A stretch of 47,185 bases of DNA, taken from a virus. Lineage: Duplodnaviria; Caudoviricetes. Shown here one piece after another: positions 1,126 to 46,961 of this stretch (position 1 is its first letter; each line of letters begins with the position of its first letter). Below the pieces are notes generated by a model. The model did not search any database. It had not been told where the DNA came from and was given only the letters and a program-made list of their open reading frames with translations. A program made the translations under genes and the position numbers. The DNA lies in the IMG/VR virus record IMGVR_UViG_3300014208_001434, positions 1-47,185 of that record; one strand, given 5' to 3'.

Positions 1126-2681
1126 ACAGCCCGGAGTTTCGACTTATCATAGGTAATTTTTTCAGCCTCAAAGCTATAATTCATCTCTTCAATGAAAAAT
1201 AACGTGCTCTTTATTTTATATATGGCTGTAAAATCAAAATTTGAAAGCATGGCTGGCGGAATGCGCAAGGTGCATTCATAGGGTTGAAACGAAGTAACCA
1301 TCATATTGGCAGTATTCTTCCAGCAGTAATTAAATATTGAATTTGGGTTTAAATATATTTGACCATCACCACCAGAATTGTTCCATAGCCCGGCAACTCC
1401 ATTTGCATTGTGGGCAAAACCAAGCATGAACGGAACTTTACCTTTCTCTTCAGAATAATAATTTGTTCCAATCATTTCAACCTTTGAGGTTGCTTCAACA
1501 CCTGATATTGAAGTAACTGCAGCAATGTCCGATTTTATTTCTAGCACTGAATCACCGGAACCCAGCGTTATTTCCTGAAAATTGCGGGTATATTTCTTCC
1601 AGGTAATTAAACCTGTATCTTGGTCCATGGTGTACACATAATATACATTCTCATCAATTACCAAACGGAGCTCACCCGGATGGTAAGTAAACGGCAAATC
1701 ATCAAAGGTTGCAACTGATGGCATTAAGTAATATTGGTCCTGTTCCGAAATGTATTTATGCGGTGTTTGCAATTCATCGCTGGTTTCAACTCCCAGTTTA
1801 AAAACAACTTTGGTGTTCAATGTATCTCCAATTTTTTCCAAATCATCGGCCATGTACTTAGTAATATCAACTATGTTAGGCCTAGTAATTCTTTCCTCAA
1901 GGCTTATTATTAACACCTCCTTAGTGCTTTCATTAATTATGGGATGCACATTCAATAAATCGCTTATTTTATTAATAAACTCACCAATGGCAATATCGGG
2001 CAAACAACTATTCAATCTCACTTTTTGGCCATTTGAATCGGTTACATAATGTGAAACTGTATTGGTATAAAAAACCAGTTTTTTAAAATGAATGTCGTTC
2101 CGTAAATGATTTGTTTTTATGGAATATCCCTGTTCAACAAAAATTTGTTCGTATAAATAGCATAAATAAACAAATGGGGTAAAGTTCTTAGTAACGCTGT
2201 ATGGAGTGCTATTTTGGCCTATTACTGTTTCCTCATAAAAACTGCCTTGCATAAATTTTGAGTTTTCCACGGCCGGAAATACAAAATTCACATTATCGGA
2301 AGTATCAAAATTTGGACGATCCCAAATTGACAGAATACCTCCTAAAGTTAACGTACGGATGCTTCTATCCTTGTTTTTGCCATAAAATTCCGATTCATCG
2401 AAATTAAGATTACAGGCATACAGCTCTTTATTTAGTGACTGATATTGCAGTTTTGCCGATTTTTTAAAACTACGGAAGCATAAATCAACATCCACTTCGT
2501 TTAACCGTTTTTTACCCGATGCGTGGGGAACCGATAAATATTTGCTGTTGATGGCCTGCAACCCAAAATTAATGGTATTGCTGCCACGGTCGCGCACCAA
2601 CATGGAATTAACTGTTGAAACCGATATTTTAATGTTACCTGGAATTACCAGTGAATCGGTATTTGTTTTAAGGGTTAGCAT
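1122..2681 (-). CDS. Putative distal tail/baseplate structural protein
   Basis: 519-aa ORF, last gene of the tail block; position only. Confidence 0.5.
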   Translation of the reverse strand: MLTLKTNTDSLVIPGNIKISVSTVNSMLVRDRGSNTINFGLQAINSKYLSVPHASGKKRLNEVDVDLCFRSFKKSAKLQYQSLNKELYACNLNFDESEFYGKNKDRSIRTLTLGGILSIWDRPNFDTSDNVNFVFPAVENSKFMQGSFYEETVIGQNSTPYSVTKNFTPFVYLCYLYEQIFVEQGYSIKTNHLRNDIHFKKLVFYTNTVSHYVTDSNGQKVRLNSCLPDIAIGEFINKISDLLNVHPIINESTKEVLIISLEERITRPNIVDITKYMADDLEKIGDTLNTKVVFKLGVETSDELQTPHKYISEQDQYYLMPSVATFDDLPFTYHPGELRLVIDENVYYVYTMDQDTGLITWKKYTRNFQEITLGSGDSVLEIKSDIAAVTSISGVEATSKVEMIGTNYYSEEKGKVPFMLGFAHNANGVAGLWNNSGGDGQIYLNPNSIFNYCWKNTANMMVTSFQPYECTLRIPPAMLSNFDFTAIYKIKSTLFFIEEMNYSFEAEKITYDKSKLRAV

Positions 2682-4939
2682 TATTCAAGTCCTCCATCGG
2701 TAAACGTCCAATTATCGGCTGCTATTATTGCGTTTTTTGCGGTTTGTCCAGTTTCTGTATATTTTGAAGTTCCAAAATGTACACTTAAATTATTAACTAA
2801 TTCTTGAGCATCCCAAGCAACTAAAATGGCATCATAGTTAGCCGAACTTAAATTTACTTTATACATGAAACTCGTTAGATTATTAACTTTTGCCAAATTA
2901 AAATTTTTAGGTGAATCATTATTAAAAGCAAAACATCCATAAAACATTTGAGACATACTAATAACAGTCACACTCGCATCTGCACCTAAATTATTAAGAA
3001 TAATTGGACTATTTAAAGTAGAACATTGCGAGAACATATCTTGTAAACTACTGCACTTTGGTAAAGAAAACGTCATTGGAATGTTTAGAATATCGCAACT
3101 TTGAAACATACCTAAAGTTCTTGTTACCAAACTCATATTCCAGCCGCTAACATCTTGGTTAAATGCGTTACAGTTGTAAAACGTTTGGTATAAATCAGTA
3201 TTTTTCGCAGTACTCCAACCACTTATATCTTGATTGAATGCCCTGCAATCACGAAACATAGCAGCCATGTTTGTTGCATTTGACACATTCCACGAGTTCA
3301 TTGGTTGATTATACGCCCAGCAATTATCGAATGTACCTGAAAAGATAGTTACTAATGACACATTCCAAGAATTTAAATTTTGATTAAAAGCATAACAGGT
3401 ACCGAATGTGTAGTACATATTTGTCAAAGCGGTAGTAACCCAACCACTTATGTCTGAATTGAAAGCATAGCAATAATAAAACATTGACTCCATTGTTGTT
3501 ACCTTGGCTACATTCCAACCGCTTATATCCTGATTAAAAACATAACAATTAAAAAACATTGAATTAGTTGTGGTGACATTAGCTGTATTAAATGTAGCAA
3601 GCGGTTGATTAAATGCTCTTGCATCCATAAACATATAAGACATATTAGTCACAAGAGAAGTATTAAAATTACTTACTGACTGGTTGAATGTTGTACAAAG
3701 CCTAAACATATTCATCATATTCGTAGCCTTAACCGTACTCAATCCACTAATACTTGAATTGAACGCTGGACAATTTTGGAACATTTGTGAGAAATCAGTA
3801 ACATTGCTGGTGTTCCATGTATTTAATTCCTGATTAAATATTGTACAATTTGCAAATAAACCTGACATATTTGTCACCTTGGAAGTATCCCAAGAAGGCA
3901 TCGATTGATTAAAGTGTGTACAGGATATAAATGTTCGGTACATATTCGTAACATTTCCTACACTCCATGAATTTAAGTTCTGTGAAAATGCTGTACAATT
4001 AGCAAAAGTTGTGTTCAATGTTGATACATTTGAAACATTCCAGCCACTTATATTTTGATTAAAAACAGTACAACCAGAAAAAGTAGCGGTAAGATTTGTA
4101 ATGTATTGGGTGTTCCAACCACTTATGTCTTGGTTAAAAACATTGCAATTCGTAAGTAAACCTTCAAGTGAAGTTAATGTAGCTGGAAGCGTCCAATTAA
4201 TAGCGGAATTAAATAAAATACAATTATAAAACATGTTTGTAACTGTAGTGACTTTACCAATATTAAAATTAATAGGGTGATTGAATTTTTCACAATACAT
4301 AAACATATTAGTCAATGCCGTTGCATTGGCTGTATTCCAATTTCCTACATTTTGAGTAAAATTACGACAGGCATAGAACATACCATTAAAAATCACACCA
4401 GAACTCACATTCCATCCACTTACATCTTGGTTAAATAAATTAAGTCCACTAAATGCAGATTCAAAATTTACTACATTAGAAACATCCCAACTACCTATGT
4501 TTCCCCAATTAGTTATCCCGCTGCATCCTTGAAACGCATAACTCAACGATACACAGTCTTTTAATCCAATGTTACCATCATCAGGAACCGTTGTTAAGTT
4601 TGTACAAGCTGGGCACGATAGCAGTAACAAACCTACTGATCCAAATTTCTTAATTTTTGTAAGGTATAATCTATTGGCAAGAGAAGAACTAAAAATCAAT
4701 CCCGGGAATATACCTTTAATTTTTACCTCATACGTACCAGCTACTGTATAGGTATGGTATAAATCAGGATCGTTATTTGATGTAAGAATACTCGTAGTAC
4801 CATCCCCCCAATCAGCTTCAGCATTAACAGCTTCATAACCTCCTATTTGTAATTGAATGGTTTGGCCAGCGGAACTAGTTACAAATTCTAATATCATTGG
4901 GTTAGAACCGCCAAACCTATGTGAGTTAATTACGTGCAT
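2681..4939 (-). CDS. PKD-domain plus DUF285/BspA-like (about 25-aa repeat) protein, possible receptor-binding or adhesin
   Basis: N-terminal DWGDG...HTYTVAGTYEV (PKD) then more than 20 repeats like FNQDISGWNVSNVTNMxxMFxxCxx; no signal peptide. Confidence 0.85.
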   Translation of the reverse strand: MHVINSHRFGGSNPMILEFVTSSAGQTIQLQIGGYEAVNAEADWGDGTTSILTSNNDPDLYHTYTVAGTYEVKIKGIFPGLIFSSSLANRLYLTKIKKFGSVGLLLLSCPACTNLTTVPDDGNIGLKDCVSLSYAFQGCSGITNWGNIGSWDVSNVVNFESAFSGLNLFNQDVSGWNVSSGVIFNGMFYACRNFTQNVGNWNTANATALTNMFMYCEKFNHPINFNIGKVTTVTNMFYNCILFNSAINWTLPATLTSLEGLLTNCNVFNQDISGWNTQYITNLTATFSGCTVFNQNISGWNVSNVSTLNTTFANCTAFSQNLNSWSVGNVTNMYRTFISCTHFNQSMPSWDTSKVTNMSGLFANCTIFNQELNTWNTSNVTDFSQMFQNCPAFNSSISGLSTVKATNMMNMFRLCTTFNQSVSNFNTSLVTNMSYMFMDARAFNQPLATFNTANVTTTNSMFFNCYVFNQDISGWNVAKVTTMESMFYYCYAFNSDISGWVTTALTNMYYTFGTCYAFNQNLNSWNVSLVTIFSGTFDNCWAYNQPMNSWNVSNATNMAAMFRDCRAFNQDISGWSTAKNTDLYQTFYNCNAFNQDVSGWNMSLVTRTLGMFQSCDILNIPMTFSLPKCSSLQDMFSQCSTLNSPIILNNLGADASVTVISMSQMFYGCFAFNNDSPKNFNLAKVNNLTSFMYKVNLSSANYDAILVAWDAQELVNNLSVHFGTSKYTETGQTAKNAIIAADNWTFTDGGLE
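3100..4530 (-). repeat. Degenerate ~75-nt coding tandem repeats within the DUF285 gene
   Basis: Recurrent cattcca(a/g)cc(a/g)ctta...tg(a/g)ttaaa units, e.g. near 3511, 4037, 4112, 4408. Confidence 0.8.
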
Positions 4940-4942
4940 GAC

Positions 4943-5407
4943 TTATAACCAATTAAAATTAAAATCTGGGAAAATGTTGGAATTTATGTAGGCATCCTCT
5001 CTCAATTGCCTTTCTTCCCTTAAGGATGTTTCTTGTGCTTGCCTTAATGTTCCTTCGTTGGTTGGTTGCGAAAAGTCTTTAACACGCTTCCAAATTGGAT
5101 AAGCCGTATCAATAAAATTGCCAAAAGAATTGTTAAAATTTACCAATACTTCAGCCTGGGGTTTTTCGGTTAACAGCCATTCAATAAGGCAAACTTTTAA
5201 AAACTCGCCTTGGTTAGTTGTCAAGGTCCAAATTTCGCTAATGGTATGTTTATTTGGATCGTAATCACCAGGATATGGCATTGTTTGAATTTCGTAAAAT
5301 TCAATGGATGCATCTAATCCAACTATGGGTTCTTTATCCTCCCTTGGATAGGTTGTTTTCAACATTTCTGTTGATTGTTCTTTTTGGATAACTCTAATTA
5401 CTTGCAT
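4943..5407 (-). CDS. Hypothetical protein (possible tail-fibre chaperone)
   Basis: 154-aa ORF tightly packed between tail genes. Confidence 0.55.
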   Translation of the reverse strand: MQVIRVIQKEQSTEMLKTTYPREDKEPIVGLDASIEFYEIQTMPYPGDYDPNKHTISEIWTLTTNQGEFLKVCLIEWLLTEKPQAEVLVNFNNSFGNFIDTAYPIWKRVKDFSQPTNEGTLRQAQETSLREERQLREDAYINSNIFPDFNFNWL

Positions 5408-5408
5408 T

Positions 5409-6140
5409 TTATTTACGATCTAAAATTAGATAACCTTTTAAAGCTTTACCTGCATTTGTTGCTCCAATTTGGTCAACGTGCCCGGTAACTTCGTCGCCTT
5501 TTGCAAATGTTATGGTGCCATTCAAAACAAAAGGGGTTGCAGCAGTTAACGATGTTTTTTCTGTTGCGTCAATACTTGGTTTTGTGGTAAAAAATGAGAT
5601 GCCATTTTTCTTTAAATCGGCAATTAAACTTGAACCTGTTGGAGCTTCGGCCACTGCAATGAATAAATCAATTAGTTTTGATGGGTGTGTCATGTTAAAC
5701 GCATCCTTAACGCCTGTTGTTAAAGCGGTGGCATAATCGCTTAATGCAAATGAAAACACATCGAAGTTCGATTTAACCCATATTGCAGCATCTGTTGTGG
5801 CATCCACACAATCATAAATATTATCATTGGTAACATCTATCCAACGGCTGCCAACCACATAGCCCTCTGTGTTATCATTAGTAGCTGCTGGTGCGGTGGT
5901 GGCTACGTAGTTATTTTGAATGGCGGTTGTACTTGGCAACTGCTCTGTTGGAACTTTCCCATCCTCCCCCAATGTTGCCAAGCCACCGGCAACAGCTTTT
6001 GAATTGAACAGTTCTTCGGCTTTGGTTAATACCTTTTTTAATCCTTCATTGGCGTGGGGACCGGTGATAAACTTGCGGCCATTGCTCTTAAAAATGGAAT
6101 CAATCCAGGTACGTATCTGTGTATAGGTTTCGCTTGCCAT
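5409..6140 (-). CDS. Putative tail fibre/tail-associated protein
   Basis: Thr/Ala-rich; GGLATLGEDGKVPTEQLP and APAATND..EGYVVGSRW segments resemble phage fibre modules. Confidence 0.6.
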   Translation of the reverse strand: MASETYTQIRTWIDSIFKSNGRKFITGPHANEGLKKVLTKAEELFNSKAVAGGLATLGEDGKVPTEQLPSTTAIQNNYVATTAPAATNDNTEGYVVGSRWIDVTNDNIYDCVDATTDAAIWVKSNFDVFSFALSDYATALTTGVKDAFNMTHPSKLIDLFIAVAEAPTGSSLIADLKKNGISFFTTKPSIDATEKTSLTAATPFVLNGTITFAKGDEVTGHVDQIGATNAGKALKGYLILDRK

Positions 6141-6142
6141 GG

Positions 6143-7747
6143 TTAGTTAAAATAATCTTCGTTAAAATCATCGCTGTAATCGCCGCTAATTGGTATATCA
6201 TCATCGGAGCAAGCTTCATCAACAAAAGCACGCCTGTAAACCGATGAATGGGTATATATGCTGGTATTGTCGTTATGCAGCATATAGTCGTCGGTAATAA
6301 AGCTGCATGGCACGGTAATGCCATTTATGTACTCAAAAATATCGTCCGATAGTTCAATCTGCTGAATGTAGTTTTTCCAGTTGCGCGAATTGCCACCAAA
6401 ATTTATCATTAAACCCCAGTTTAAATTGAATTCAAGGGTACGGGTAGCCGATACCTGAATTTCCTTTCGGGTTTTGGTGGTATAATCGTCGGGTAAGGCA
6501 ACAGTGCCAAATTCCTTTTCAATTTTTGCGGGGTTGGTAACTATACCCGTTGACCGCAAACAGTCGTAACCACCGCCATAATCGGAACGGAATATAAAAA
6601 ACCTTAAATAGTCGTAGGTTTCATAATCTAAAATGTAGGTACGTTCCTGGCTAATATCAACATTGCTTTGGTTGCGCAAAACAACGGTGTAATTAGCCAC
6701 GGTTTTTGAAATGTTTATCTCAAAAATATTAAGCCTTAATGGGGAAACAATTGCTTGTAACACCTTGCCATAGATTGCACCAATGGTTCCTCGGTCAGCT
6801 TCGTAGCTGCTGCCATCGGTAAAATTAACTTTTAAGTGAAGTTTAACGGTGCTTATAGTAGCATCGAATACCAGAAATGAAAGCAATTCTGGTGCTAATG
6901 GCGTTATTTTTTTAAAGTTGGGCTGCAACGTAAGGAACGACTTATGTACCGATAATTCGTTATAAAAACTACCAGCCTCCTCGTTCCAGATAGCCTTTTT
7001 CATATAGCTGCTTTGGCCGTAAATGGCATAATAAGTGCTGCTAAAAAGCGTATTGTGTTCTACTGCAGGAATTCCATACCTATCGAATAATAAATAAAAA
7101 TATGGTTTGCAAGTTTCGTTGAAGCTGAGAATGTTGGCCTCCAAATCAAAGTCGGGTTGTGGCAGTATCTCAATAAATTCAGAAATATCGAATATTACAC
7201 GGCCCTCCAAATCAGGGAATTCTACCAATTCACCCAGTAGTTCGGAACTGCCATTATAAATGCGGATTCCTAACCGATAATTTTCATTATAATGGGGTTC
7301 TACGCCTAAAGTAAAATCAATTTGCTCAAATGTAAATGAAGGTGAACCAACCATTTGATGATCGTTCATTTTAATTGATTGCATGCGGATGAACCCATTT
7401 GGATAGGTTGAATTGGTAACAACGCTAAATGTAAAATATGCCACCGCGTTGGGAAATCCGTTCATTCGGTCAACCGCATGATTAAGAAACTCGTTGTCAC
7501 TGGAAAAATTAGATCGTTTTAAAATATCGTTAAGGTTAACCAGGTGATCAACAAAATTGAAGTGTAGGGAATAGGCTCCACTTATTGTAATATCAAAATA
7601 ATGGACATCGGCATCATCGCCATAAATTAAAAAATCGAGAATGGTTTTTGAACCTGCATCCAAATGCGAAGTGGTAATGGCTTCCACTATTACGGGGTCG
7701 CCAACCAACGATAACAGCTTAGGAACTCTATATTCTGAAATAGCCAT
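6143..7747 (-). CDS. Putative structural (tail) protein
   Basis: 534-aa ORF in tail block; acidic C-terminus GDYSDDFNEDY. Confidence 0.5.
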   Translation of the reverse strand: MAISEYRVPKLLSLVGDPVIVEAITTSHLDAGSKTILDFLIYGDDADVHYFDITISGAYSLHFNFVDHLVNLNDILKRSNFSSDNEFLNHAVDRMNGFPNAVAYFTFSVVTNSTYPNGFIRMQSIKMNDHQMVGSPSFTFEQIDFTLGVEPHYNENYRLGIRIYNGSSELLGELVEFPDLEGRVIFDISEFIEILPQPDFDLEANILSFNETCKPYFYLLFDRYGIPAVEHNTLFSSTYYAIYGQSSYMKKAIWNEEAGSFYNELSVHKSFLTLQPNFKKITPLAPELLSFLVFDATISTVKLHLKVNFTDGSSYEADRGTIGAIYGKVLQAIVSPLRLNIFEINISKTVANYTVVLRNQSNVDISQERTYILDYETYDYLRFFIFRSDYGGGYDCLRSTGIVTNPAKIEKEFGTVALPDDYTTKTRKEIQVSATRTLEFNLNWGLMINFGGNSRNWKNYIQQIELSDDIFEYINGITVPCSFITDDYMLHNDNTSIYTHSSVYRRAFVDEACSDDDIPISGDYSDDFNEDYFN

Positions 7748-8307
7748 TATGCTTTATTTGTTTTGAATTTTGCCATAGCTCTATCACCAAACCACCAACC
7801 CACCACCGAAAAAGTAAGGTAAATTATAGATGCTATCAAGTCAAATACCTGATCAGGAGTAAGAAAAGTGTGATTTTGCATTACAATTATTACCGATTGC
7901 TGTGTAATGTAAGCCGTTATAACCATTAGTGTAATTGTAATGCCCGGGCGCATGCCTGAGCGAAGTACATCAACCAATCCCAACAAAAAGGTTAGCAAAA
8001 CGCCAAAAATAGTTGTCCACCAACGTTCAAAAAGCTTTTCAATAAGTTGATTGCTTACATTCACCTTATTGCCAAACTCCTGTGACATTCTGAAATTATC
8101 GTTTGCCGAAAGTTCTAAATCGCGCTGAACTTGTTGTTCTGTAATTTTTATATTGGCTTCGGTTTCGGCAATCATGGCATTGGTTTCAGCTTGAACCATA
8201 GCCAAATCGTGTTCGTTTTTTAGTTTTTGGGTTTTCAAATTCATTATGCCGGTTGCTATTGAACCGCCCAATCCGGTTACAATGCCTAAAATGCTTTCTA
8301 AAATCAT
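7747..8307 (-). CDS. Holin-like membrane protein (3TM holin type)
   Basis: Several hydrophobic helices, coiled coil, MRPGIT and C-terminal WWFGDR motif; adjacent to lysin. Confidence 0.65.
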   Translation of the reverse strand: MILESILGIVTGLGGSIATGIMNLKTQKLKNEHDLAMVQAETNAMIAETEANIKITEQQVQRDLELSANDNFRMSQEFGNKVNVSNQLIEKLFERWWTTIFGVLLTFLLGLVDVLRSGMRPGITITLMVITAYITQQSVIIVMQNHTFLTPDQVFDLIASIIYLTFSVVGWWFGDRAMAKFKTNKA

Positions 8308-8744
8308 GATGGTTGTTTTTTATAGGTTTCTGTAATAATTAGCTTGAATTCGTTATTTTCCAGCAGGCTCATAAACTTGCGAACCGTAATACGTGAGTTA
8401 AGCACTGCCTTTTGTTTGCCTATCAGGCCTCTTTGTTTGCCTAATAAAAGGCACCCTTTTGAATGTGTTAAAAAGCCCTTTGAAACATCGCCGGCATAGT
8501 TACCCGGATGTATTAAAATATAGGAACGACCATGTACATCGGTAACATGAAATATTAAGCCGTATTTTTGGCTGTAACGTATTTTAACCCAATAGGTACC
8601 AGCCGGAATACAGCTGATTGAATTCTGATTTTGTCGCCATGGCAATTCCAAACAAAATGATGAAAAACCCAATTCGGGAACATTCCATGTTGAAAAGGTT
8701 CCATGATCGGTTGATTCGTATCGGTTTGAAAAAACGCTTAGCAT
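8304..8744 (-). CDS. DUF5675-type putative endolysin (L,D-transpeptidase-like His/Cys)
   Basis: LELPW..N...SCIPAGTY, ILIHPGN, SKGCLLLG motifs; sits between two membrane genes. Confidence 0.75.
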   Translation of the reverse strand: MLSVFSNRYESTDHGTFSTWNVPELGFSSFCLELPWRQNQNSISCIPAGTYWVKIRYSQKYGLIFHVTDVHGRSYILIHPGNYAGDVSKGFLTHSKGCLLLGKQRGLIGKQKAVLNSRITVRKFMSLLENNEFKLIITETYKKQPS

Positions 8745-9037
8745 TATTCGTCCTTTTTGAGTGATTTAAGAAAAGCCTTATTTTTTTCGGGTTCAGCGCC
8801 TGCCATGGCTTCTTTCTTTAGCTTGGTGGTTAAGTACTGATCATATATTTTCATTATTATCCATAGTATGGATAAAACTGAAATTACAATGGTTAGTAAA
8901 CTGCTGAATATTGGGCTGAACAGAAAGCCGCTGAAGGTTGCGCCAAGGAAACCTATTTTAATATTCAAGTAGGTAGCAATGCCTGTAAATGTTAGTCCAA
9001 TACTGTCGGTAAGAGGTTTTAATGATTCTGGTATCAT
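8744..9037 (-). CDS. Small membrane protein, putative holin/antiholin
   Basis: Two hydrophobic stretches and a basic C-tail; ATG at 9037 preferred because the longer start overlaps the promoter motif and the tape measure gene. Confidence 0.6.
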   Translation of the reverse strand: MIPESLKPLTDSIGLTFTGIATYLNIKIGFLGATFSGFLFSPIFSSLLTIVISVLSILWIIMKIYDQYLTTKLKKEAMAGAEPEKNKAFLKSLKKDE

Positions 9038-9054
9038 TCCGTGTTTTTTTATTT

Positions 9055-9089
9055 CAAAAATGGGTTTCATATTTTTGTAATTAAAGGAC
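9055..9089 (-). promoter_or_regulatory. Candidate late promoter, copy 1 (lysis/distal tail block)
   Basis: GTCCTTT-N20-CATTTTTG on minus strand. Confidence 0.65.
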
Positions 9090-9092
9090 AGT

Positions 9093-12000
9093 TTATGTTC
9101 TACTTCCAACTTTTTTTTGCACTTCAATTTCAGCACCTATCTCATTAATACGCTTAATGGCATCGGCAGTAATTACCAATTGTTTCGATTTGAAAATTAA
9201 AGCAGCCTCATATATATATTTAGCTGCGGAATCTAAACTTCCGCTTTCAGTGGTTTTATTATTGGGTTTTACTGGTTGTATTGTGTCGGTAGTATAACCA
9301 CCGCTGGCGTACCCGCGCGTAATGTTCATATTGGCAATGGCTGTTGGCAAATCGAGTGTATTAATGGTACCGTTTTGCTGTGCCAGGTTAATAATATCTA
9401 ATGCCCTTTTTACACTTGGGTTTGCTGTTGCCTTGGCATTGGCCACAAACTCATTTTTGTGAACTATACCGGCGGCATCGGAACTGTTGCCTTGGCTGGT
9501 ATAACCGCCAACCTCAAAACCACCCATTGATTTTAATGCTTGACCGGCTATTCCCGCAATACTTATGGCTGCACTTGCTGTATTTATACCAACCCAAGGC
9601 ATACCGAATGATAATGGTGATGCAGCAACAGCCTTTGCGTTTGCAATTCCCGTATTAAATATTACCTGACCAATAGCAGCCGCTTGCTCAAATAAATACA
9701 AAGCTTGCCCCATTTTCGATTCTTGACCAACCAATTCACGGAGTGTACCAAAAGCCTGTTGGGCAACGCCTAATTCAGCCATTTGAATCTGTTTTTTAGC
9801 TTCAAATGCATCTAACTTTAACTGCCGCTTATCGTTTTCCAATTTTGCTTCGGCTTGCAATTCTTTAAGCCTATTGCCATCGGCCAGTGCAAATTCCTGA
9901 TTGTACTGTTCTTGTAATATTTCCAGTTTGGCTTGAAATGCTTCTTCATCGGTGGCCGCTTCCAATTCAGCAATCATTAGTTTATCTAATGTTTTCCGTG
10001 CATAATCGTCATCTTCAATGGCTGCAATACGTTTTAAATGTTCTGCTTTTTTTATCTCTAATTGAGCATAAGTGAGCTCATTAATTTCAACTTCGTATGA
10101 ATTTAACTGTTGCTTTTTTACAATGCGGCCTTTTAAATTTTCCTGCTCTTCGCGCCAGCGTTGTTCTTCAATGGCTTTTTCTTTTTCAATCCCATCTTTT
10201 AGTGAAGCTATACCGGCATCATTCAATTCCTTTTGAGCTTGAATAATTAGTTTTTTCTGTTCTTCAAGCCTTTCCAATAAAGGCTTTAAAAAATCTTTGG
10301 AGTCTGTTTTATCTTTTTTAGTTGTATTTGTTGGGTCTGTTGTTAAATCGGGAGTAGGTGAATTTGGATTAACCGATGATGCAGCAGTATTACCTCTTGA
10401 AATTATATCCAATAATCGTTTCTTTGTCTCAATATAATCTTCCTCCGCTTTTTTGGCATTTTCAGCTGACGTTTCAAGACTACTATATACAGCCTGAGTA
10501 TCGCCCAATGCCATTCTTATGCCAGTTACTATATGTTGCCAAGTCTCTAATTTTTTATCGTCGCCACTTGCTACGGCGGCCAAACGCTTCTGTTCTAATT
10601 CAACCAAAGCATTATAAGCGGCTTCGGCTTCGGCACGTTTTAACAACGATGCCAAGTATTTATCGCTGGCAGTGGTGGCAGCATCGGTATTAATGGTTTC
10701 AAGAGTAAGGTTTCCAAAATATTCGGGCGATATTTCATTCAATTTTTTAATGGCAGCCAACCGTTCTTCTTTGCTTTTCTTTTCATCCTTAGCAATTTTC
10801 ATCAGCTTTTCCATCTCAATTTTTTCGGCAGCAATGTTCTTTTGGGCTTCAACCGTAACATCGTTCACTGCTTTTTGAGCCTTTTCGGCTGATGATAACT
10901 GGCGGGTTAGTGCATAAAGGGCGACACCTGCAGCAACCAATAATGTAACTAATAAGGCAATTGGGTTTGCCTTTTGCGCTAAATTCCAAGCCTGTTGGGC
11001 AATGGTGGCCAGTTTAATCTGTCCGGTTAAAACTTTTTTAGCTATTGTATATGTTTTAACTATAAATTCTTTTGCTACCATTGAGGCGTAATGAATATCG
11101 TCCCATCGTTTGGCAACTTGTATGGCTAAAGTATAAGCACCAATAGCAGCGGTAATTGTAGTTATAACCCCAATATGGGTGCTAATAAAATTAATGGTAG
11201 CCATTAAAACCTTTAAAAACATGGTAACGGCATTGGTACTAAAAGTCATGGCGGGAGCCAACTTTTCACCAAATTCAATAGCAGTTAATTGTGCCTTGTT
11301 TTTTGCCTGCTCCAATGCTGCGGAATTATTGCTTGTATTTATTGATGCTTGCCTTATAGCCTCATTAGTTCCAGTAACAGCTTTAGTTAGCGATTCGTAA
11401 GTACCAATGTTGTTAAGCAAAATAGTTCCTGCAGTAACATTTTCGGCACCAAAGTATTTTATTTTTAGTGCATCTTTTTCGGCGGCTGTACCTTGTTCAT
11501 TAATCTTTTTATTGGCTTCATTCATGGCATCGGCCATATTGAACTGACCGGATGCATAACCCAACCCCGCATCTTTCATTTTTAAAAGGGCACCCCGGAG
11601 TTTTGTTCCGGCCTCTTCGCCTTTTAGCTGTTTGGTAGCCAAAACTTCCAATGCGGCAACGGTTTGCTCTAAGCTCATATTGCTGTCGTTGGCCACGGCA
11701 CCCACGTTTTTCATTGAACCGGTTAAGTCCGATATTTCAGCCGAACCTTCCAATGCTCCTGCTGCTAAAGTATTTATTACCCTTGCGGCTTCGCTAGCGG
11801 GTAAGTTAAACTGGTTCATGGCTCCGGCAACGGCTTCAACGGCTGGGGCGGTTTCCATTTTTGCAGCTTCGGCCAATATAAGTGCCTGTTTGGTTACTTC
11901 ATTCAGGTCTTCTTTATTTTTAAGGAGTTCAGGGCGGGCTGAACCCATTAATTTATAGGCATCAACAATATCGGTGGCACTTTTGGTTATTTTAATACCT

Positions 12001-12623
12001 CCTTCAAGGGTGCTGGTGCTTAGTTCTTTTGCTTGGTCGCTTAACCATTTTAAATCGTTTCCGGCTAAACCGGTAATAGCCGATAGTTCGCTAACCTTAC
12101 TTTCAAATTCATTGAACGAATCGACCATTTTTTTAGCTCCAAAAACCACTCCTGTAAAGGAAGCAGCCATGGCCGTTATTAACCCGAAATAATTATTGAA
12201 TCCACCGGCTAGTTTTTTAAATATTCCCTGTTGCTGGGTAAGTTCGCTGTTAAACCCGGTCATGGCTCCTTTTAGGGTTTTCAGCTTTTCAACTTCTTGT
12301 CGGTAGTCTTTATGGTCCTTGCTTAAATTGCGAACCGCTTTTGCTTGCGTTTCATACGCCTTTTTAAGTTGGTTGAATGTAGAACCATTCATATTTTTAA
12401 GCACCGAATCAACAGAAACTAATTCGCGCTTCAGTGATTTTATTTCAGTTTCGGTTTTATTCAGTTCTTTTTGAATGCCCGGGAGAAGATCGTGTTGTTG
12501 AAGGGTGAAAGCATCTTTGAGCTGCTTTTTCAAATCTTTGGCTTTTTGCTCAATACTTTCGAGCTGGGCTTCAACTTGTTTGTTATTTAGTTCTACCCGT
12601 GGGCGCGCAATCTTTTCTGCCAT
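9093..12623 (-). CDS. Tail tape measure protein (TP901-like core)
   Basis: 1176 aa, helical and Ala-rich; FESKVSELSAITG...LKGEEAGTKLRG core; coiled coils. Confidence 0.93.
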   Translation of the reverse strand: MAEKIARPRVELNNKQVEAQLESIEQKAKDLKKQLKDAFTLQQHDLLPGIQKELNKTETEIKSLKRELVSVDSVLKNMNGSTFNQLKKAYETQAKAVRNLSKDHKDYRQEVEKLKTLKGAMTGFNSELTQQQGIFKKLAGGFNNYFGLITAMAASFTGVVFGAKKMVDSFNEFESKVSELSAITGLAGNDLKWLSDQAKELSTSTLEGGIKITKSATDIVDAYKLMGSARPELLKNKEDLNEVTKQALILAEAAKMETAPAVEAVAGAMNQFNLPASEAARVINTLAAGALEGSAEISDLTGSMKNVGAVANDSNMSLEQTVAALEVLATKQLKGEEAGTKLRGALLKMKDAGLGYASGQFNMADAMNEANKKINEQGTAAEKDALKIKYFGAENVTAGTILLNNIGTYESLTKAVTGTNEAIRQASINTSNNSAALEQAKNKAQLTAIEFGEKLAPAMTFSTNAVTMFLKVLMATINFISTHIGVITTITAAIGAYTLAIQVAKRWDDIHYASMVAKEFIVKTYTIAKKVLTGQIKLATIAQQAWNLAQKANPIALLVTLLVAAGVALYALTRQLSSAEKAQKAVNDVTVEAQKNIAAEKIEMEKLMKIAKDEKKSKEERLAAIKKLNEISPEYFGNLTLETINTDAATTASDKYLASLLKRAEAEAAYNALVELEQKRLAAVASGDDKKLETWQHIVTGIRMALGDTQAVYSSLETSAENAKKAEEDYIETKKRLLDIISRGNTAASSVNPNSPTPDLTTDPTNTTKKDKTDSKDFLKPLLERLEEQKKLIIQAQKELNDAGIASLKDGIEKEKAIEEQRWREEQENLKGRIVKKQQLNSYEVEINELTYAQLEIKKAEHLKRIAAIEDDDYARKTLDKLMIAELEAATDEEAFQAKLEILQEQYNQEFALADGNRLKELQAEAKLENDKRQLKLDAFEAKKQIQMAELGVAQQAFGTLRELVGQESKMGQALYLFEQAAAIGQVIFNTGIANAKAVAASPLSFGMPWVGINTASAAISIAGIAGQALKSMGGFEVGGYTSQGNSSDAAGIVHKNEFVANAKATANPSVKRALDIINLAQQNGTINTLDLPTAIANMNITRGYASGGYTTDTIQPVKPNNKTTESGSLDSAAKYIYEAALIFKSKQLVITADAIKRINEIGAEIEVQKKVGSRT

Positions 12624-21642: not shown

Positions 21643-22050
21643 TTAAAAAACTAAATCGGGAACTAAGTCAGAGTTTTGTTTTTCCTTCGGCTTTATCGCC
21701 TGTTCTGCTTTTACATTTATTACCTGTAAGTTACTAAATAGGTAAGCCAGCGGAAAAAATTTAAACTCTTCTGGTTCCGTTCCACCTTCAGGGGTTTGGC
21801 TATAATTGCGGGGCTGCCCCCAAAATAAAAATGCCTTGCTACCTTTGGCAATGGTAAAGCCTTTTTGCTTCCATTGGTTAAAGGTGTTAAACTCCTCAAT
21901 GTCGGGGTTTTCTCCCTCGTAAAATTCTTTTAATCCTTCGTTAACTGTGTCGTAAATCCCTTCTTTTACTGCCAGTCTTATATTTTGGCTCATTGCAATT
22001 AATTCCAGCCGCTTGGCTTTGTATTGCTCTTTTTTACTATCTTTGTTCAT
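21643..22050 (-). CDS. ArdC-like N-terminal (ssDNA-binding) domain protein
   Basis: FNTFNQWKQKGFTIAKGSKA...LFSNLQV motif. Confidence 0.7.
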   Translation of the reverse strand: MNKDSKKEQYKAKRLELIAMSQNIRLAVKEGIYDTVNEGLKEFYEGENPDIEEFNTFNQWKQKGFTIAKGSKAFLFWGQPRNYSQTPEGGTEPEEFKFFPLAYLFSNLQVINVKAEQAIKPKEKQNSDLVPDLVF

Positions 22051-22098
22051 CGCTCTAAAATTTTGGTTAAACAATTTATTAGGGTCTTAAATCTTAAG

Positions 22099-41151: not shown

Positions 41152-41982
41152 TTAATTTTTATATTCCAGATGTAATTGATATTCTTTATTATTTCGTTCC
41201 GGAACGAAATTATAGACCAGTATTTCGGTCCGGTAATTATTTTTAATTCGGTTTGCGACCTTAATATTTATTTTATGGCTTTCGAATTTCCAGTTGTTTT
41301 TTAGAATAAAATACTTGAGGGTTTGACTCCAGTAATTTGATAGGATGAATTTTCCCTTAATATCTGAAATGAATTCCAGCAGCCTAAAAAAATCAAGCAT
41401 GGTAAATCCTTTGTAGTGACCTTGGTAAAATCCGGGATAAGGAGGATCAAGATAAAATACTGTTTCTTTGGTATCTCGGTCTTTTATAACACGGAGCGCC
41501 TCCCGGGATGATATTTGAATATTTTTTAAACGGTTATTCAATAATTGAAACTCAATTTTCCTCCCATTCATATACCGGCCGGAATGACTACCCGCAGTTC
41601 CATTACACCATTTCCATCCACCATGAATTGAACCGGAAAAACTCATGTTTGTAGTAATCCAAACCGACCAAGCCAATTGGACATCAGTAAATTCAATTCT
41701 ACCGCAATAAATATCCTTGGCTTTTCTATATAAGAATTCGGAATGAAGAGTTGTTTCAATTAGTTCCTGAAGCTCTTCAAAATTATCGCGCATCTGCAGG
41801 AAGAAATTTATTAATTTTTGGTTGTTATCGTTGATTACCTCAAGGTATGATGGTTCTTTCTCAAAAAAAACTGCACCACCCCCAAAATAGGGCTCACAAT
41901 AAATTTTATGCGGTGGTATTATACCAACTATTCTTTTAGCCATTTTTTGTTTTCCACCATAATATGTAATTGGGGTTCTCAT
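41152..41982 (-). CDS. Dam/D12-class DNA adenine methyltransferase
   Basis: TPITYYGGK, EPYFGGGAV, IND, YLDPPY. Confidence 0.92.
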   Translation of the reverse strand: MRTPITYYGGKQKMAKRIVGIIPPHKIYCEPYFGGGAVFFEKEPSYLEVINDNNQKLINFFLQMRDNFEELQELIETTLHSEFLYRKAKDIYCGRIEFTDVQLAWSVWITTNMSFSGSIHGGWKWCNGTAGSHSGRYMNGRKIEFQLLNNRLKNIQISSREALRVIKDRDTKETVFYLDPPYPGFYQGHYKGFTMLDFFRLLEFISDIKGKFILSNYWSQTLKYFILKNNWKFESHKINIKVANRIKNNYRTEILVYNFVPERNNKEYQLHLEYKN

Positions 41983-43664
41983 ACAATTTGCTTTTTAGAG
42001 GTTACATTCATAAGGGCTTTTGAATTTGCTTCGGCAATGGCTTTGGCTACCATAGGAACCACGGCATTACCGATAAACTTTTTTTGGTTGGCTTGCGAAC
42101 CTTTTAAAATATACCCTTCAGGAAAACCTTGTATTTTTAACAGTTCCAATATTTTGAGCATCCGCATTTTAATATCGATGATACCATATGCCACCATGAA
42201 ATTCTTGATTTTTACCATTATGGGTGAATCGGCATTGGTTATTTCAATGGAAGGACGGCCGGTTTCTGTTTGCACAATGTAGGGTGGCCGTTTGTCCATT
42301 TTGGCAATAAGGGTAAAACACGGCCTATCTAAATCACGGCCTTTGTCGTTGAATTGCGGGTTTAATAAATAATGCTGTTTGTGCGATGCGGTTATTACCC
42401 GGTTGGGTTCATTTAATGAACTACCCACATTTTTAAAGTTCGTATCCATTATCCACTTTACCATGTTCAGTTTTGGAACGCCAGTAATGGATCCAACCGG
42501 TTTATTTATACCGTTTGGTTTACCATTTCCATATTGGTAATCAATAAATATGGATGCAAATCTATCTTTTGTAGTTACCGTTGGGCAAGGTTCTTTAATA
42601 CTTTGGGCACCGATACTCTTTCCATAGTAGGATGTAAGAAATAATGCTTTTACTAATGAATGATGATCAATTGTTGTAATTGCTCCCGATGGTTTTTCAA
42701 TGCTGATTGCCTTGCTTTTTGGATGGCCGGAATAGTTTTTGGTCAAAAAAGTAGCATCAACAATTCCCAATCTGTTTTGTGTAGAAATAACCGGACACGG
42801 TTCATTAATACCTGGTGCTTTATATTTTCCGTTTATATTCATGGAATTATATTTCACCATGAATTTAGCTTCACCCCCCGCCACAAACTTCACCAATCCA
42901 GCGTAAATGCGTTCCAGTGTAGCATCCACCAATGGTTTTTTTCGGTTAAAAATGCTAGTACCTTCATCATCCAAATCAAGAACCTCGCGTACCGGGTTCC
43001 ATAGTTTTAATGTGTTTTCAAAAAGGCTTCCTTTGTTTACGGTTTTGCCATGGGTTGCCTCCGGCCAAACTATGGGCAAACCATCTTTGGCAAATTGGGC
43101 AAAGAACCGTTCGCGGCTTGTATAGGCTCCAAAATCGGCGCTATTGAGTATCTTATAATCAAAATCGTAACCATAGCTGCACATTTTTTTAACCCAATGA
43201 ATGTATTCGCGGCCATTCAATTTATTCAACGGTCTTCCGCTTTCGTCCAATGGTCCCCAGCTCATGAATTCACGAACGTTTTCAATCATAACAAAATCTG
43301 GATTCAATTCGGCGTTGTAATCGTAAAGTGAATAGGCAAGGGTGCGGCTATCAGCATCTCGTGGCATGCCACCTTTTGCTTTGCTGTAGTTGGTACATTC
43401 AAGGCTGGCCCATATAATTATAATGCAATCCGGATTATCGTTGCGGAGTTTACGAACTAAGTTTGCCAGTGCTTTAATAACCTTCATATCACGAACATCT
43501 TCCACAAAATGCAAGCAATTCGGGTGATTGGCTTTATGGCTTTCAATGGCCAATGCATCGTGGTTGACGCATGCTACCACCTCAATATTTGGGTTATTTG
43601 TTAAATGGATTCCGGTTGTGGTTCCACCGGCTCCTGAGAATAGATCAATGTAAAATATTTTCAT
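41979..43664 (-). CDS. DNA (cytosine-5) methyltransferase
   Basis: DLFSGAGG, ASLECTNYS (motif IV variant), ENV, RERFF, IGNAV; start M-KIFYIDLF at 43664. Confidence 0.9.
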   Translation of the reverse strand: MKIFYIDLFSGAGGTTTGIHLTNNPNIEVVACVNHDALAIESHKANHPNCLHFVEDVRDMKVIKALANLVRKLRNDNPDCIIIIWASLECTNYSKAKGGMPRDADSRTLAYSLYDYNAELNPDFVMIENVREFMSWGPLDESGRPLNKLNGREYIHWVKKMCSYGYDFDYKILNSADFGAYTSRERFFAQFAKDGLPIVWPEATHGKTVNKGSLFENTLKLWNPVREVLDLDDEGTSIFNRKKPLVDATLERIYAGLVKFVAGGEAKFMVKYNSMNINGKYKAPGINEPCPVISTQNRLGIVDATFLTKNYSGHPKSKAISIEKPSGAITTIDHHSLVKALFLTSYYGKSIGAQSIKEPCPTVTTKDRFASIFIDYQYGNGKPNGINKPVGSITGVPKLNMVKWIMDTNFKNVGSSLNEPNRVITASHKQHYLLNPQFNDKGRDLDRPCFTLIAKMDKRPPYIVQTETGRPSIEITNADSPIMVKIKNFMVAYGIIDIKMRMLKILELLKIQGFPEGYILKGSQANQKKFIGNAVVPMVAKAIAEANSKALMNVTSKKQIV

Positions 43665-43680: not shown

Positions 43681-43998
43681 TCAGGTGAAATAAAAGGTTT
43701 TACCGCTTCCACTGCCAAAACGCTGCTGCTTGATGGTTGCAATGAATGGAAAATCAGATTTGGATATCTTACCTAATGCCTCTTTTATGGGAGTTGCATT
43801 GGTGAAAAATTTACGCTCCATTCCATCGAATTTTACCTTAACGATGCTCCTACCATCACCGTGCCGTGTTTTCACATCAGCTTCATAATCAATTACCTCT
43901 ATTTCGCAATTGGTTACCTCCTCGATGGAGATAACCGGTACCGGAAATATGTTTTTGTTTTCAAGGGTGTTTATATTGAAATCAGAGAATTTTTTCAT
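43681..43998 (-). CDS. 105-aa beta-rich protein overlapping the RT stop; candidate DGR accessory factor
   Basis: 17-nt overlap with the RT gene; alternating hydrophobic strands with aromatic/basic residues. Confidence 0.6.
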   Translation of the reverse strand: MKKFSDFNINTLENKNIFPVPVISIEEVTNCEIEVIDYEADVKTRHGDGRSIVKVKFDGMERKFFTNATPIKEALGKISKSDFPFIATIKQQRFGSGSGKTFYFT

Positions 43999-44968
43999 TT
44001 TTAATAAGCTTTTTTAATAAGTGTTTTGAATTGCAATGTTTGGCCCAACCTATGTAGGAGCAAATCCTTTTCTTGTACTCTTTGGGTTCGATGCTCTTTT
44101 TATCGAGCTTGGCAACCCGCCTGCAAAACCGTTGTTTTATTGATTTTCGCATCAGGATGTGGGTATGAAAGAATACATAGCCAACAAAATCGATTCCACG
44201 GGCATCAACCGGAAATACCTGGTAATTGTGCTTTAATTCAAGGTTGAGTTTGCTTTGCATGTATTCGGTTATTTCGGCCAATAAAGTGTGCAAAGAAGGC
44301 TTAGTTGCTGATAAGATAACCATATCGTCGGCATACCGGTAGTAGTATTTAACTCCTTTTTCTTCCTTCAACCAATGGTCGAAATACGACAGGTACAGAT
44401 TTGCAAAGAACTGGCTTAAATAGTTACCAATGGGAACGCCTTCAGCCGAGTCAATTATTTCATCGAGCAGTACCAGGAGCTGTTTATCCTTAATCTTTTT
44501 TCGTACTATTTGCTTTAATATGCTGTGGTCGATTGTTGGATAGAACTTCCGTACATCCATTTTTAGGCAATACCGGGTATTTTCAACATCGTTTAAATCT
44601 CTTTTAAGGTGCTTTAATACCCCATGTATGCCACGGCCTTTTATGCAGGAATAGGTATCGGCGGTAAAAACAGAAACCCACAAATCTTCCAAAACATTCA
44701 TAATGGCATGATGCACCACCCGGTCGCGGAACGGTAAACGGTAAACTATCCGTTCTTTGGGTTCGTAAATCTTAAAAATGCTGTATTCCGAAGTCTTGTA
44801 GGTTCCCGCCATTAATTCAAGGTTTAGCCGGTTCAGGTTCTCATCGAGGTGCTTTTCGAATAGTTTAACACCGTAGGTATTTACCTTGCCTTTCCGTGCT
44901 TTACCGTATGCCAGTTGAAGGTTTTCAATACTGCAGATAATACCGAACAAATTTCCTTTTCTTTTCAT
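43982..44968 (-). CDS. DGR reverse transcriptase
   Basis: 328 aa; RDRVVHHA, KMDVRKFY, GVPIGNYLSQ (DGR GxxxSQ signature), RYADD, IDFVGY; no maturase/endonuclease tail; adjacent TR/VR pair. Confidence 0.96.
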   Translation of the reverse strand: MKRKGNLFGIICSIENLQLAYGKARKGKVNTYGVKLFEKHLDENLNRLNLELMAGTYKTSEYSIFKIYEPKERIVYRLPFRDRVVHHAIMNVLEDLWVSVFTADTYSCIKGRGIHGVLKHLKRDLNDVENTRYCLKMDVRKFYPTIDHSILKQIVRKKIKDKQLLVLLDEIIDSAEGVPIGNYLSQFFANLYLSYFDHWLKEEKGVKYYYRYADDMVILSATKPSLHTLLAEITEYMQSKLNLELKHNYQVFPVDARGIDFVGYVFFHTHILMRKSIKQRFCRRVAKLDKKSIEPKEYKKRICSYIGWAKHCNSKHLLKKLIKNEKIL

Positions 44969-45072
44969 TTTTTCTTTGCTTTTCTAATTGGAGCCTTCGC
45001 TTGCGCTACCGGCACCTTTTGAAAGGTTGTTTTTTGCCAAGGGGCAAGGTTCCTGTTTTTGATATCTTTTTT
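44969..45072 (-). ncRNA. DGR spacer RNA between TR and RT with short hairpins
   Basis: ttgcc-aagg-ggcaa and acctt-ttga-aaggt hairpins directly 3' of TR on minus. Confidence 0.5.
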
Positions 45073-45154
45073 AGCATAGGTGAGAGCTGTTACCTGCATT
45101 CGCATTCGTATAGTTGTAATTCGTATCGTTGAACACGAAGCCCGAAGAGGACAA
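45073..45154 (-). repeat. DGR template repeat (TR)
   Basis: 82-nt gapless match to 45256-45337; AAC/AAT-rich (would read LSSSGFVFNDTNYNYTNANAGNSSHLC); 21 adenines. Confidence 0.96.
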
Positions 45155-45181
45155 CCCTCAAAAACAAGCAACCTATTTTTT

Positions 45182-45655
45182 TTATTTACTCAGGATATCG
45201 TTCCAGATATCGATAAAATGCTTGCCCGCGTACGTGGCCAGTTCTTCGCTTGCAAAGCAAAGGCGAGAGCCGTAACCCGCAGTCGCAGCCGTACAGCGGT
45301 AAGCCGCATCGCGGAACACGAAGCCCGAAGAGGACAAATCGAACCATGGTACCCATTTTTTTTGATTGGGGTTGTTCCAGTCAATAACCTTATCTTCATT
45401 TAATGCCTTGGTAATTGTTTTAATTTTTCGGTAATTGATTTCGTCATCGGTAAAGCCCATTTCCTTTAATTCATCGTCATCCATGGGGCTTTCTCCGAGC
45501 TCGGCACAGGCATCGGCGTAGGTTTTAATTCTATCGGTAATTTTACCGTTGAAAAACTCTTTGCCAAATGAATCTTCTAGAGTTGCTTTGAACTCCGGAG
45601 AGGCATCTTTGTACAACTTTCTCGCTGTTTTTTCTTCAATTTGTAGTGTTCTCAT
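45182..45655 (-). CDS. DGR target protein (157 aa, VR near the C-terminus)
   Basis: Contains VR encoding LSSSGFVFRDAAYRCTAATAGYGSRLC; likely start MRTLQIEEK at 45655. Confidence 0.9.
   Translation of the reverse strand: MRTLQIEEKTARKLYKDASPEFKATLEDSFGKEFFNGKITDRIKTYADACAELGESPMDDDELKEMGFTDDEINYRKIKTITKALNEDKVIDWNNPNQKKWVPWFDLSSSGFVFRDAAYRCTAATAGYGSRLCFASEELATYAGKHFIDIWNDILSK
45256..45337 (-). repeat. DGR variable repeat (VR)
   Basis: 16 mismatches to TR, all at TR adenines on the minus strand. Confidence 0.96.
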
Positions 45656-46418: not shown

Positions 46419-46961
46419 TTACATTAGTTTATTTTTGTATGCCCAATTCACTAAATCGGACTTGGCATGAATATTCAATTTTTTGAAAATACGCTGACGG
46501 TGGTTGCGCACAGTATTTGGCGAAATAAAAAGACGTTCTCCAACCTCTTCAACACTTAGTCCAGTGGCATAAAGTATGGCCACATCTTTTTCGCGGTCGC
46601 TGATGGTAGTATTTAATTTTGGTTCGCATATTACCTGATAATCTTTGCAAAATAACCCTTTCAATGGGCATTCAACCCTTTCAAGGCATAGGTTTCCATC
46701 ATCATCAATGTCTGGTTCATGGTCGTTTTTTGAGAAGTTGCAACGTAGGAAACGTGCTACCAACATATATTTACGCTCAGCACCGTTCCAATAGTGCTGC
46801 TTTAACCGTTCGTATGCTTCAGGATAATCCTCCTCAATTTTGTCGGTAATTAGGTTTATCACCTCTTTATCTTCGTTATTGAAGATTCGGAATTCATCTT
46901 TAGTTAGGTCGTTAATTACCAAATTACGTCCCGATGGATCCTTAAAAAATTCGACTAACAT
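46419..46961 (-). CDS. LuxR-type HTH regulator with N-terminal Cys cluster
   Basis: ISDREKDVA...GLSVEEVGERLFISPNTVRNHRQRIFKKL. Confidence 0.88.
   Translation of the reverse strand: MLVEFFKDPSGRNLVINDLTKDEFRIFNNEDKEVINLITDKIEEDYPEAYERLKQHYWNGAERKYMLVARFLRCNFSKNDHEPDIDDDGNLCLERVECPLKGLFCKDYQVICEPKLNTTISDREKDVAILYATGLSVEEVGERLFISPNTVRNHRQRIFKKLNIHAKSDLVNWAYKNKLM

Follow-up and report, generated by a model that had tools for sequence, protein, structure and literature searches.

The stretch of DNA analysed here (the window) comprises 47,185 nucleotides (nt), positions 1 to 47,185 of the viral record IMGVR_UViG_3300014208_001434 (Duplodnaviria; Caudoviricetes). Close to one end it carries, on the minus strand, a cassette consisting of a target gene, a template repeat (TR), a spacer, the gene of a reverse transcriptase (RT) and an open reading frame (ORF) for a basic protein of 105 amino acids (aa), which we call DS105. 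The cassette is, with practically no room for doubt, a diversity-generating retroelement (DGR): it combines a variable repeat (VR) that differs from the TR at adenines only, an intact RT with a YADD motif beside the TR, and a target gene in which the VR is in frame and rich in AAY codons. What is new is that a small gene with a predicted fold similar to that of a single-stranded DNA-binding protein (SSB) nearly always travels with the RT or is fused to it, and likely stands in for Avd. For the element as a whole we lean towards a reading in which an Avd-less DGR with a PAG1-like helper rewrote about 11 codons of a small, acidic and likely cytoplasmic protein, which would likely bind host proteins in the conflict between phage and host.

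Adenine-specific differences between the repeats

The VR and the TR align without a gap over 82 nt at an offset of 183 nt (coordinates of all features are collected in Table 1). Realignment reproduced the 16 mismatches reported in an earlier note on this DNA, and all 16 lie at an adenine of the TR (9 A>G, 5 A>C, 2 A>T). This block of the TR contains 21 adenines, the non-adenine positions are identical to the VR throughout (61/61), and the probability that 16 random mismatches would all fall on adenines is 4.9e-13. The adenine-only match reaches further, over 89 nt (45249-45337 versus 45066-45154), with 20 of 20 mismatches at adenines, and its added part contains an in-frame TAA in the TR, opposite Phe134 of the target. 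The earlier statement that no TR codon can become a stop therefore holds for the 27 in-frame codons of the 82-nt block, none of which can be converted, and fails for the 89-nt match because the TAA lies in the extension. A scan of the 5.57-Mb genome with any base allowed at TR adenines returned the TR and one VR, and no further VR for this TR. The spacer between TR and RT contains a 4-bp hairpin, derived from the alignment without a shuffle control, in which each pair is retained in 70 or 71 of 71 distinct spacers and two-sided changes occur at all four pairs.

For comparison with relatives, 157 loci were fetched in addition to the window; a full target ORF is present in 154 loci and a TR in 117. 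Summed over the loci, VR and TR differ at 3,503 adenines and at 39 other positions, a ratio that the scoring scheme favours. At the level of sequence this comparison demonstrated past rewriting of the window cassette by adenine-specific change, because the 89-nt TR recurs unchanged in the nearest relative, L082, whose VR differs at 13 sites, all of them TR adenines (13/13); upstream the two loci are 86% identical. Among 39 groups of related contigs that are identical for 150 nt upstream of the VR, the VR differs in six. The largest such group, six near-identical contigs (L153-156, 158 and 159), contains five VR variants with 14 of 14 variable sites at TR adenines, and one of the six varying groups has a single non-adenine change. 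The adenine-specific variation that the earlier note had expected of an active element is thus found among relatives.

Two observations weigh against continued rewriting. The remaining 33 of the 39 groups show no VR difference, which may reflect repeated sampling of one phage, and VR variants of the window phage were absent from the contigs of two groundwater runs of 2018 (depth 277) and 2022 (depth 4), one of which may be the source of the window. The contig of the 2022 run, an independent one, is letter-identical to the window over 44986-45544, and the deep run gives a single contig; rare variants may still exist, because contigs drop them. It is a possibility of some weight, though a minor one, that the window copy is intact and dormant or has been purged to one VR allele. 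The identical VR in both years and the loss of one target by deletion (see below) would agree with this, whereas the RT, the TR, the spacer hairpin and DS105 are all intact, both att sites of the prophage are present and contigs are blind to rare variants.

Codon-level variation was tallied over 183 distinct VR/TR pairs of the target family. The adenines at the 3' end of the VR proved to be nearly fixed (CAC>Arg in 132/132, CTA before T>CTT in 112/112 and AGC>Gly in 62/67 cases). These differences fit those expected between the site for initiation of mutagenic homing (IMH) and its counterpart IMH*, a role that we infer from the BPP-1 model. Because the last VR adenines hardly vary across relatives, the really variable part is reduced to about 17 adenines in 11 codons, corresponding to 1.2e10 proteins (1.9e11 if all adenines were free), and the 4^21 variants proposed earlier were an overestimate. 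At the AAY codons (n = 1022) the most frequent residues are Tyr (19%), Asp (15%), Gly (11%), Asn (9%) and Ser (8%), a mix which resembles that of antibody loops.

The tally also revealed that an adenine before G in the TR appears as G in the VR in 393 of 440 cases. The conversion extends to silent sites, with GCA>GCG in the middle of the VR in 99 of 102 cases and 37 of 38 silent ApG sites converted when one pair per TR cluster was used, and it was found again (50/53) in another 23 VR/TR pairs, most of them tail-type. In natural VRs a template ApG ends as GpG almost always. We treat this new observation as a lead because natural VRs pass through selection.

Table 1. Positions of the DGR cassette and of other features in the window
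Feature	Position	Strand	Remarks
DGR target, 157 aa	45182..45655	-	phrog_11581; Roux PC_00007 family; apparent TP1/TP2 chimera
VR, codons 107-133	45256..45337	-	adenine-only match reaches 45249
Variable core, codons 115-128	45272..45313	-	6 AAY codons and 5 single-A codons (17 A), and a silent GCA
Putative IMH within coding sequence (G-S-R-L-C-F)	45249..45271	-	TR differences nearly fixed in relatives
TR	45073..45154	-	begins 27 nt past target stop; to 45066 including putative IMH* with in-frame TAA
Conserved 4-bp hairpin, TR-RT spacer	45035..45046	-	alignment-derived structure
DGR reverse transcriptase, 328 aa	43982..44968	-	open frame; YADD (residues 212-215) at 44324-44335; RVT_1; phrog_1423, E 3e-130
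DS105, basic protein, 105 aa	43681..43998	-	phrog_19665; PAG1-like; overlaps RT end by 17 nt
C5-cytosine and D12 adenine methyltransferases	41152..43664	-	directly behind cassette
LuxR/GerE-type helix-turn-helix regulator	46419..46961	-	near head of early gene run; PF00196, E 1e-15
First gene of early run, 76 aa	46955..47185	-	Cro-like by position only; family name not found
Tyrosine integrase	1..1125	+	adjoins attL
Tail-side module	1122..12623	-	without VR for the DGR TR; tape measure 9093-12623; DUF285-repeat protein 2681-4939

DS105 as a candidate accessory factor

The earlier note had missed the ORF of DS105, which lies inside the region it described and belongs to the cassette. No avd gene scored above the cut-off in the genome, where one weak match lies elsewhere. 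The gap between target and TR, 27 nt in the window and with a median of 29 nt and a maximum of 79 nt in relatives (n = 98 cassettes), leaves no room for avd; the gap between TR and RT, with a median of 105 nt and more than 300 nt in two of these cassettes, rarely would. DS105 follows the RT in 96/98 of them and is found in none of 89 control segments from upstream. The linkage was also analysed from the other side, using 136 loci (80 viral, 56 from genomes, partly redundant) that were fetched by DS105 alone. An RT is fused to DS105 in 12 of these and ends at most 600 nt upstream in 116; it lies elsewhere in the locus in two, is absent from four and could not be tested for in two. Eight of nine longer DS105 homologues contain RVT_1, most of them as continuous chains of 394-428 aa. 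DS105 also accompanies tail-type DGRs with CLec3 targets that have no Avd-sized ORF between target and TR.

The predicted structure provides a lead to a function. The Atlas model of DS105 (predicted template modelling score, pTM, 0.67) resembles a cluster in which 44% of the members carry PF17427 (Phi29 SSB), with template modelling scores of 0.86 and 0.93, and also lies near RT-fused clusters; we take an SSB-like fold as a lead from modelling. Judged by eye, DS105 resembles PAG1 of Wu et al. in the motifs VKT-x-x-G, KFFTN and FP.

We consider it quite probable that DS105 is an accessory factor of retrohoming and a candidate substitute for Avd. Several points speak against this. The PF17427 profile matches none of 120 DS105 homologues and is present on under half of the structural-neighbour cluster; DS105 is missing from two of the 98 cassettes, and an RT from four of the 136 DS105 loci with enough upstream DNA. 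Furthermore, the linkage counts overstate independence because the loci are redundant and related. DS105 could instead have no part in retrohoming and simply hitch-hike as a phage gene, such as one for a replication SSB. The cassettes without DS105 would suit this explanation, as would several tail-type loci with one or two genes between RT and DS105 and the judgement of Wu et al. (PMC5758913), in the available passages, that PAG genes are 'tenuous'. We regard it as improbable, since DS105 stays behind the RT in unrelated phage backbones, accompanies it into tail modules as well and is fused to it in frame in distinct RT lineages.

Some further observations concern the RT and its surroundings. 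At position 44295 the contigs of both groundwater runs read A for the G of the window, which changes Ser225 of the RT to Phe (family consensus Tyr); the letter in the window could stem from a minor allele or from an assembly error. A second, distant RT with 26% identity is encoded elsewhere in the genome (G000:C2:143589-144407). In tail-type DGRs a second conserved gene of about 120 aa lies between RT and DS105 (L259:2932-3291, L262:3632-3991, L264:3639-4004, L266, L268 and L288), and it lies behind DS105 in L287 and L290; those scanned gave no Pfam match, and it could be an accessory or a tail-assembly gene. Among cassettes that have lost the RT, L270 (the same contig as L019) retains two targets, the TR and part of DS105, while L261 and L277 retain a tail-type target and DS105.

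The target protein and its possible role

The target starts with ATG (a longer frame starting with GTG would encode 195 aa), and most homologues have 155-159 aa, in agreement with the length of 157 aa given earlier. The protein has a pI of 5.0 and no hydrophobic stretch, with a highest hydropathy over 19 residues of 0.49; in the family a value of 1.6 is exceeded in 3 of 149 members. A word search yielded 255 matches and a profile search about 5,100 clusters at 50% identity. Most loci with a full target ORF (n = 154) contain two targets (109), 29 contain one and 16 contain three to five; tandem two-domain fusions also occur. A single target is found in only three of the 106 loci with both TR and RT, including the window. 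The window gene corresponds to the long paralogue (TP1) of L082 until just past the VR, and its last residues and 3' flank correspond to the short paralogue (TP2). Because it joins the two, the compact layout with one target likely arose by deletion between tandem paralogues, and the target itself likely represents a chimera left by deletion within an array that usually has two targets.

An AlphaFold (AF2) model of the target from a diverse alignment (pLDDT 90.6, pTM 0.83) shows nine helices, one hairpin (residues 100-108 and 111-120) and a loose loop (126-129), with the variable codons on the second strand and the loop. In a profile comparison with the CLec3 lectin-type tail targets beside related RTs, residues 108-135 alone align (28 VR columns, probability 95%, E 2e-8), and the FGE-like motif upstream of the VR in the CLec3 tail targets has no counterpart in the window target. 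PV4-TP1 gp58 has the same scaffold with a longer tail-type VR. Because the CLec3 similarity is confined to the VR and the model is helical, we infer that a helical phage protein acquired the VR by grafting; it would share only the VR with lectin-type targets. The minimal C-type-lectin-like fold suggested in the earlier note is accordingly doubtful, the prediction being one beta-hairpin on a helical body.

The family also includes proteins extended at the N or C terminus that have neither a TR nor an RT nearby, over distances of up to 10 kb (L025-L027, L029, L031, L038, L043, L045-L047, L057, L062, L069 and L073; some of the bins are labelled Firmicutes), which are probably remote targets as in Quimbyvirus. 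In L050:5477-17913, L054:3181-10471 and L035:802-10468 one TR serves targets 7-9 kb away in the same prophage. The target ORF of L140-L142 ends near residue 135 and is followed by the RT after about 100 nt; a TR was not found there, and VR and TR apparently collapsed by recombination. A scaffold homologue lies among small unnamed genes of the crAss-like phage cr109_1 (L296:5980-6387), and crAss-like proteins dominate the predicted-structure matches.

The window represents nearly the whole of a prophage of 47,991 nt (C7:42301-90291), which is bounded by repeats of 19 nt at the 3' end of a tRNA-Met gene. The integrase is located at the left, genes of tail, head and packaging type at the left and in the middle, and the methylases, the DGR, DUF4406, the LuxR-type regulator and the 76-aa first gene at the right end. 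The early operon had been described as led by Cro and LuxR; the LuxR-type regulator is supported by its family match, and the Cro label by position only. A divergent ORF of 128 aa beyond the window (C7:89784-90170) is termed repressor by position and has no family match. On the linear prophage the target lies 32.6 kb from the tape-measure gene and 42.5 kb from the last tail-side gene, so that the distance of more than 35 kb to the distal tail genes noted earlier is correct for the linear map; after excision it shrinks to 3,457 nt across attP. The tail-side module encodes a 752-aa protein with DUF285/PARCEL repeats, likely a receptor-binding protein, without DGR targeting. At 21643-22074 there is a weak ArdC-like anti-restriction match below the cut-off. 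Named target homologues come mostly from Bacteroidota, from many families, and the host of the window phage would by this token belong to Bacteroidota/FCB.

The neighbourhood of the target was surveyed in 38 non-redundant related cassettes, in which 270 ORFs were scanned and 63 could be named. A tally by hand gave 28 genes of DNA metabolism, 15 others (mostly methylases, ATPases and phosphatases), 8 moron or takeover genes, 5 head genes in three loci, 4 integration and 3 transcription genes, and no tail, connector or lysis gene among the 63. The pattern is alike in Mu-like and RecT/SbcC-type backbones, and the homologues in Versailles and PV4-TP1 are surrounded by genes for replication, methylases and tRNA ligases. 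In Roux et al. 2021 (PMC8144416) the family is listed as PC_00007, 'Phage_other'; it occurs 1,694 times in their target table, and the share predicted to be structural is 1.6%. Judging from these data the target is very probably a non-virion protein, and the earlier view that it is not a tail fibre, which also rested on its position in the early operon, is very probably right.

Against this stand the head genes that flank three of the 38 cassettes (L048, L052 and L082), the annotation of the Versailles homologue as 'tail protein' by HHpred, and the possibility of unrecognised structural proteins raised in the available part of Roux et al. 2021 (PMC8144416). The target could accordingly be part of the virion, or an ejected protein, without having been recognised as such; it could also be a soluble accessory of receptor binding whose diversification serves attachment to the host, as in Mtd. 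Its VR motif is common to CLec3 tail-type targets, one RT can serve both kinds of target (RT 2510129601 in the tables of Roux et al.), and the tail-side module is 3.5 kb away across attP. However, the integrase and the divergent repressor-like ORF lie between target and tail module, tail genes are absent from the named neighbours, and the similarity to tail targets stops at the VR, which could itself account for the 'tail protein' label. We consider a virion role quite improbable.

The same non-virion evidence (neighbours and hydropathy) would also suit a guard against competing phages, which would protect either the lysogen or the phage during its replication by variable sensing or inhibition of the proteins that such competitors bring in. 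Arrays of two to five paralogues in 125 of 154 loci and the two-domain fusions would fit a sensor panel, yet 16 extended or representative members carry no effector domain, PADLOC gave no match for the target, and the cassette, being on the strand of the lytic early genes, would be expected to be repressed in the lysogen. Such a guard is rather unlikely. A low probability is also assigned to a host-range adaptor that binds a conserved but divergent host machine such as RNA polymerase, a helicase loader or a protease. The mainly replication, recombination and regulatory neighbours, the acidic pI (5.0-5.3) and the spread over many Bacteroidota families agree with an adaptor; such partners change slowly, so that repeated hypermutation would be harder to justify.

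In the conflict reading towards which we lean, induction would lead to co-transcription of the early run, including the cassette, from an early promoter, and the RT would copy the TR with adenine-specific errors. DS105 would bind or protect the nascent single-stranded cDNA, or pass it to the IMH site, in Avd's place, and the cDNA would replace the VR from the IMH inside the target gene. Variants of the cytoplasmic binder would be selected within the infected cell, and the partner would be a fast-evolving host factor, most likely a defence protein, followed by a replication or transcription factor. A broader generalisation is tentative: Lineage-3 DGRs may use an SSB-like PAG1/DS105, free or fused to the RT, for Avd, with near-deterministic conversion of ApG to GpG and the variable hairpin of lectins on an unrelated helical scaffold, and may build arrays of intracellular, antibody-like binders for use by early phage genes against host defences.

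Ever since the lineage was named by Wu et al. 2018, the working of avd-less DGRs has awaited an explanation, and DS105 is a concrete, testable candidate. Existing E. coli reconstitution systems are suited to the question, the natural single-chain RT fusions of 428 aa are compact tools, and cultured carriers of target homologues exist (PV4-TP1, LoVEphage and Versailles). If correct, the broader generalisation would add a second mechanism of retrohoming and a non-lectin display fold. DGR targets are as a rule surface binders with a lectin fold; a cytoplasmic, non-lectin variable scaffold would depart from that rule and would suggest that phages, too, have a weapon akin to adaptive immunity.

Comparison with known systems

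The closest described family is PC_00007 of Roux et al., with RT cluster REF_DGR_[t122] (FCB, viral). Tandem targets beside the RT and a VR at about 0.75 of the length are common to both, and no function, fold model or accessory gene is given in the available passages and tables. The proteins of L155, which are 51% identical to the window target, read the same by eye as the PC_00007 members 2576065990 and 2576065991; membership of the window target is bridged through L155. The window differs in having one chimeric target, not two. It agrees with PC_00007 and with Lineage 3, class f4, in being viral and avd-less and, as judged from homologues, in having an FCB host.

According to the available passages of Wu et al. 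2018 (PMC5758913), Lineage 3 lacks avd, its targets belong to class CLec3/f4, and t120 from Galbibacter has the order TG-TG-TR-RT; targets of this type align poorly to other CLec3 targets. The absence of avd and the pair of a long and a short target in the family agree with t120. The same passages describe PAG1 from three sequences as 'tenuous', list architecture A1 without accessory genes and mention unexplained C-terminal extensions on about 20% of RTs. Unlike that record of PAG1, the linkage of DS105 is strong (96/98, and fusions), and the lectin assignment is questioned here.

In Quimbyvirus a non-structural DGR target lies among defence-related genes, and the available part of Benler et al. 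2021 (PMC8008677) proposes a role in conflict. The distal target of Quimbyvirus and LoVEphage has a homologous scaffold (26-28% identity, E 1e-8 to 1e-9) and, like the window target, a neighbourhood with methylase, MutY-like and tRNA-ligase genes. It is a remote second target that has a longer TR in common with a tail protein, whereas in the window the cassette is a dedicated one, its TR is shorter and a tail target is lacking. As far as these sources are available, a class of early, non-structural targets is thus already in print (Roux 2021, Wu 2018, Benler 2021), and an intracellular conflict role is not new as an idea, having been proposed by Benler et al. for a member of the family.

A literature search for an SSB-like or Avd-independent DGR accessory factor found Wu et al. 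2018 as the sole relevant source, with subscription papers thinly covered, so that prior notice is possible. The search found no functional study of the target family, prior notice of the fold again being possible, and the family is absent from the available passages of 10.1101/2024.11.15.621889, PMC12694917, PMC10743442 and PMC12386605.

With the BPP-1 element (mtd-avd-TR-brt) the window shares adenine-specific differences, an AAY-rich TR, a YADD RT, a conserved spacer hairpin and a bias to A>G before G. It differs in lacking avd and an Mtd-like tail target, in the extra gene behind the RT and in a putative IMH that lies within the coding sequence, some 25 codons ahead of the stop. For the RT of BPP-1 the direction A>G before G is known, yet a following G lowers its error rate, the mean of which is near 30% (available passages of 10.1101/2025.03.24.644984 and PMC12875486); in natural VRs of the window family an adenine before G is almost never kept. 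Taken together, the accessory candidate, the helical scaffold model and the ApG pattern are what is new here relative to these systems.

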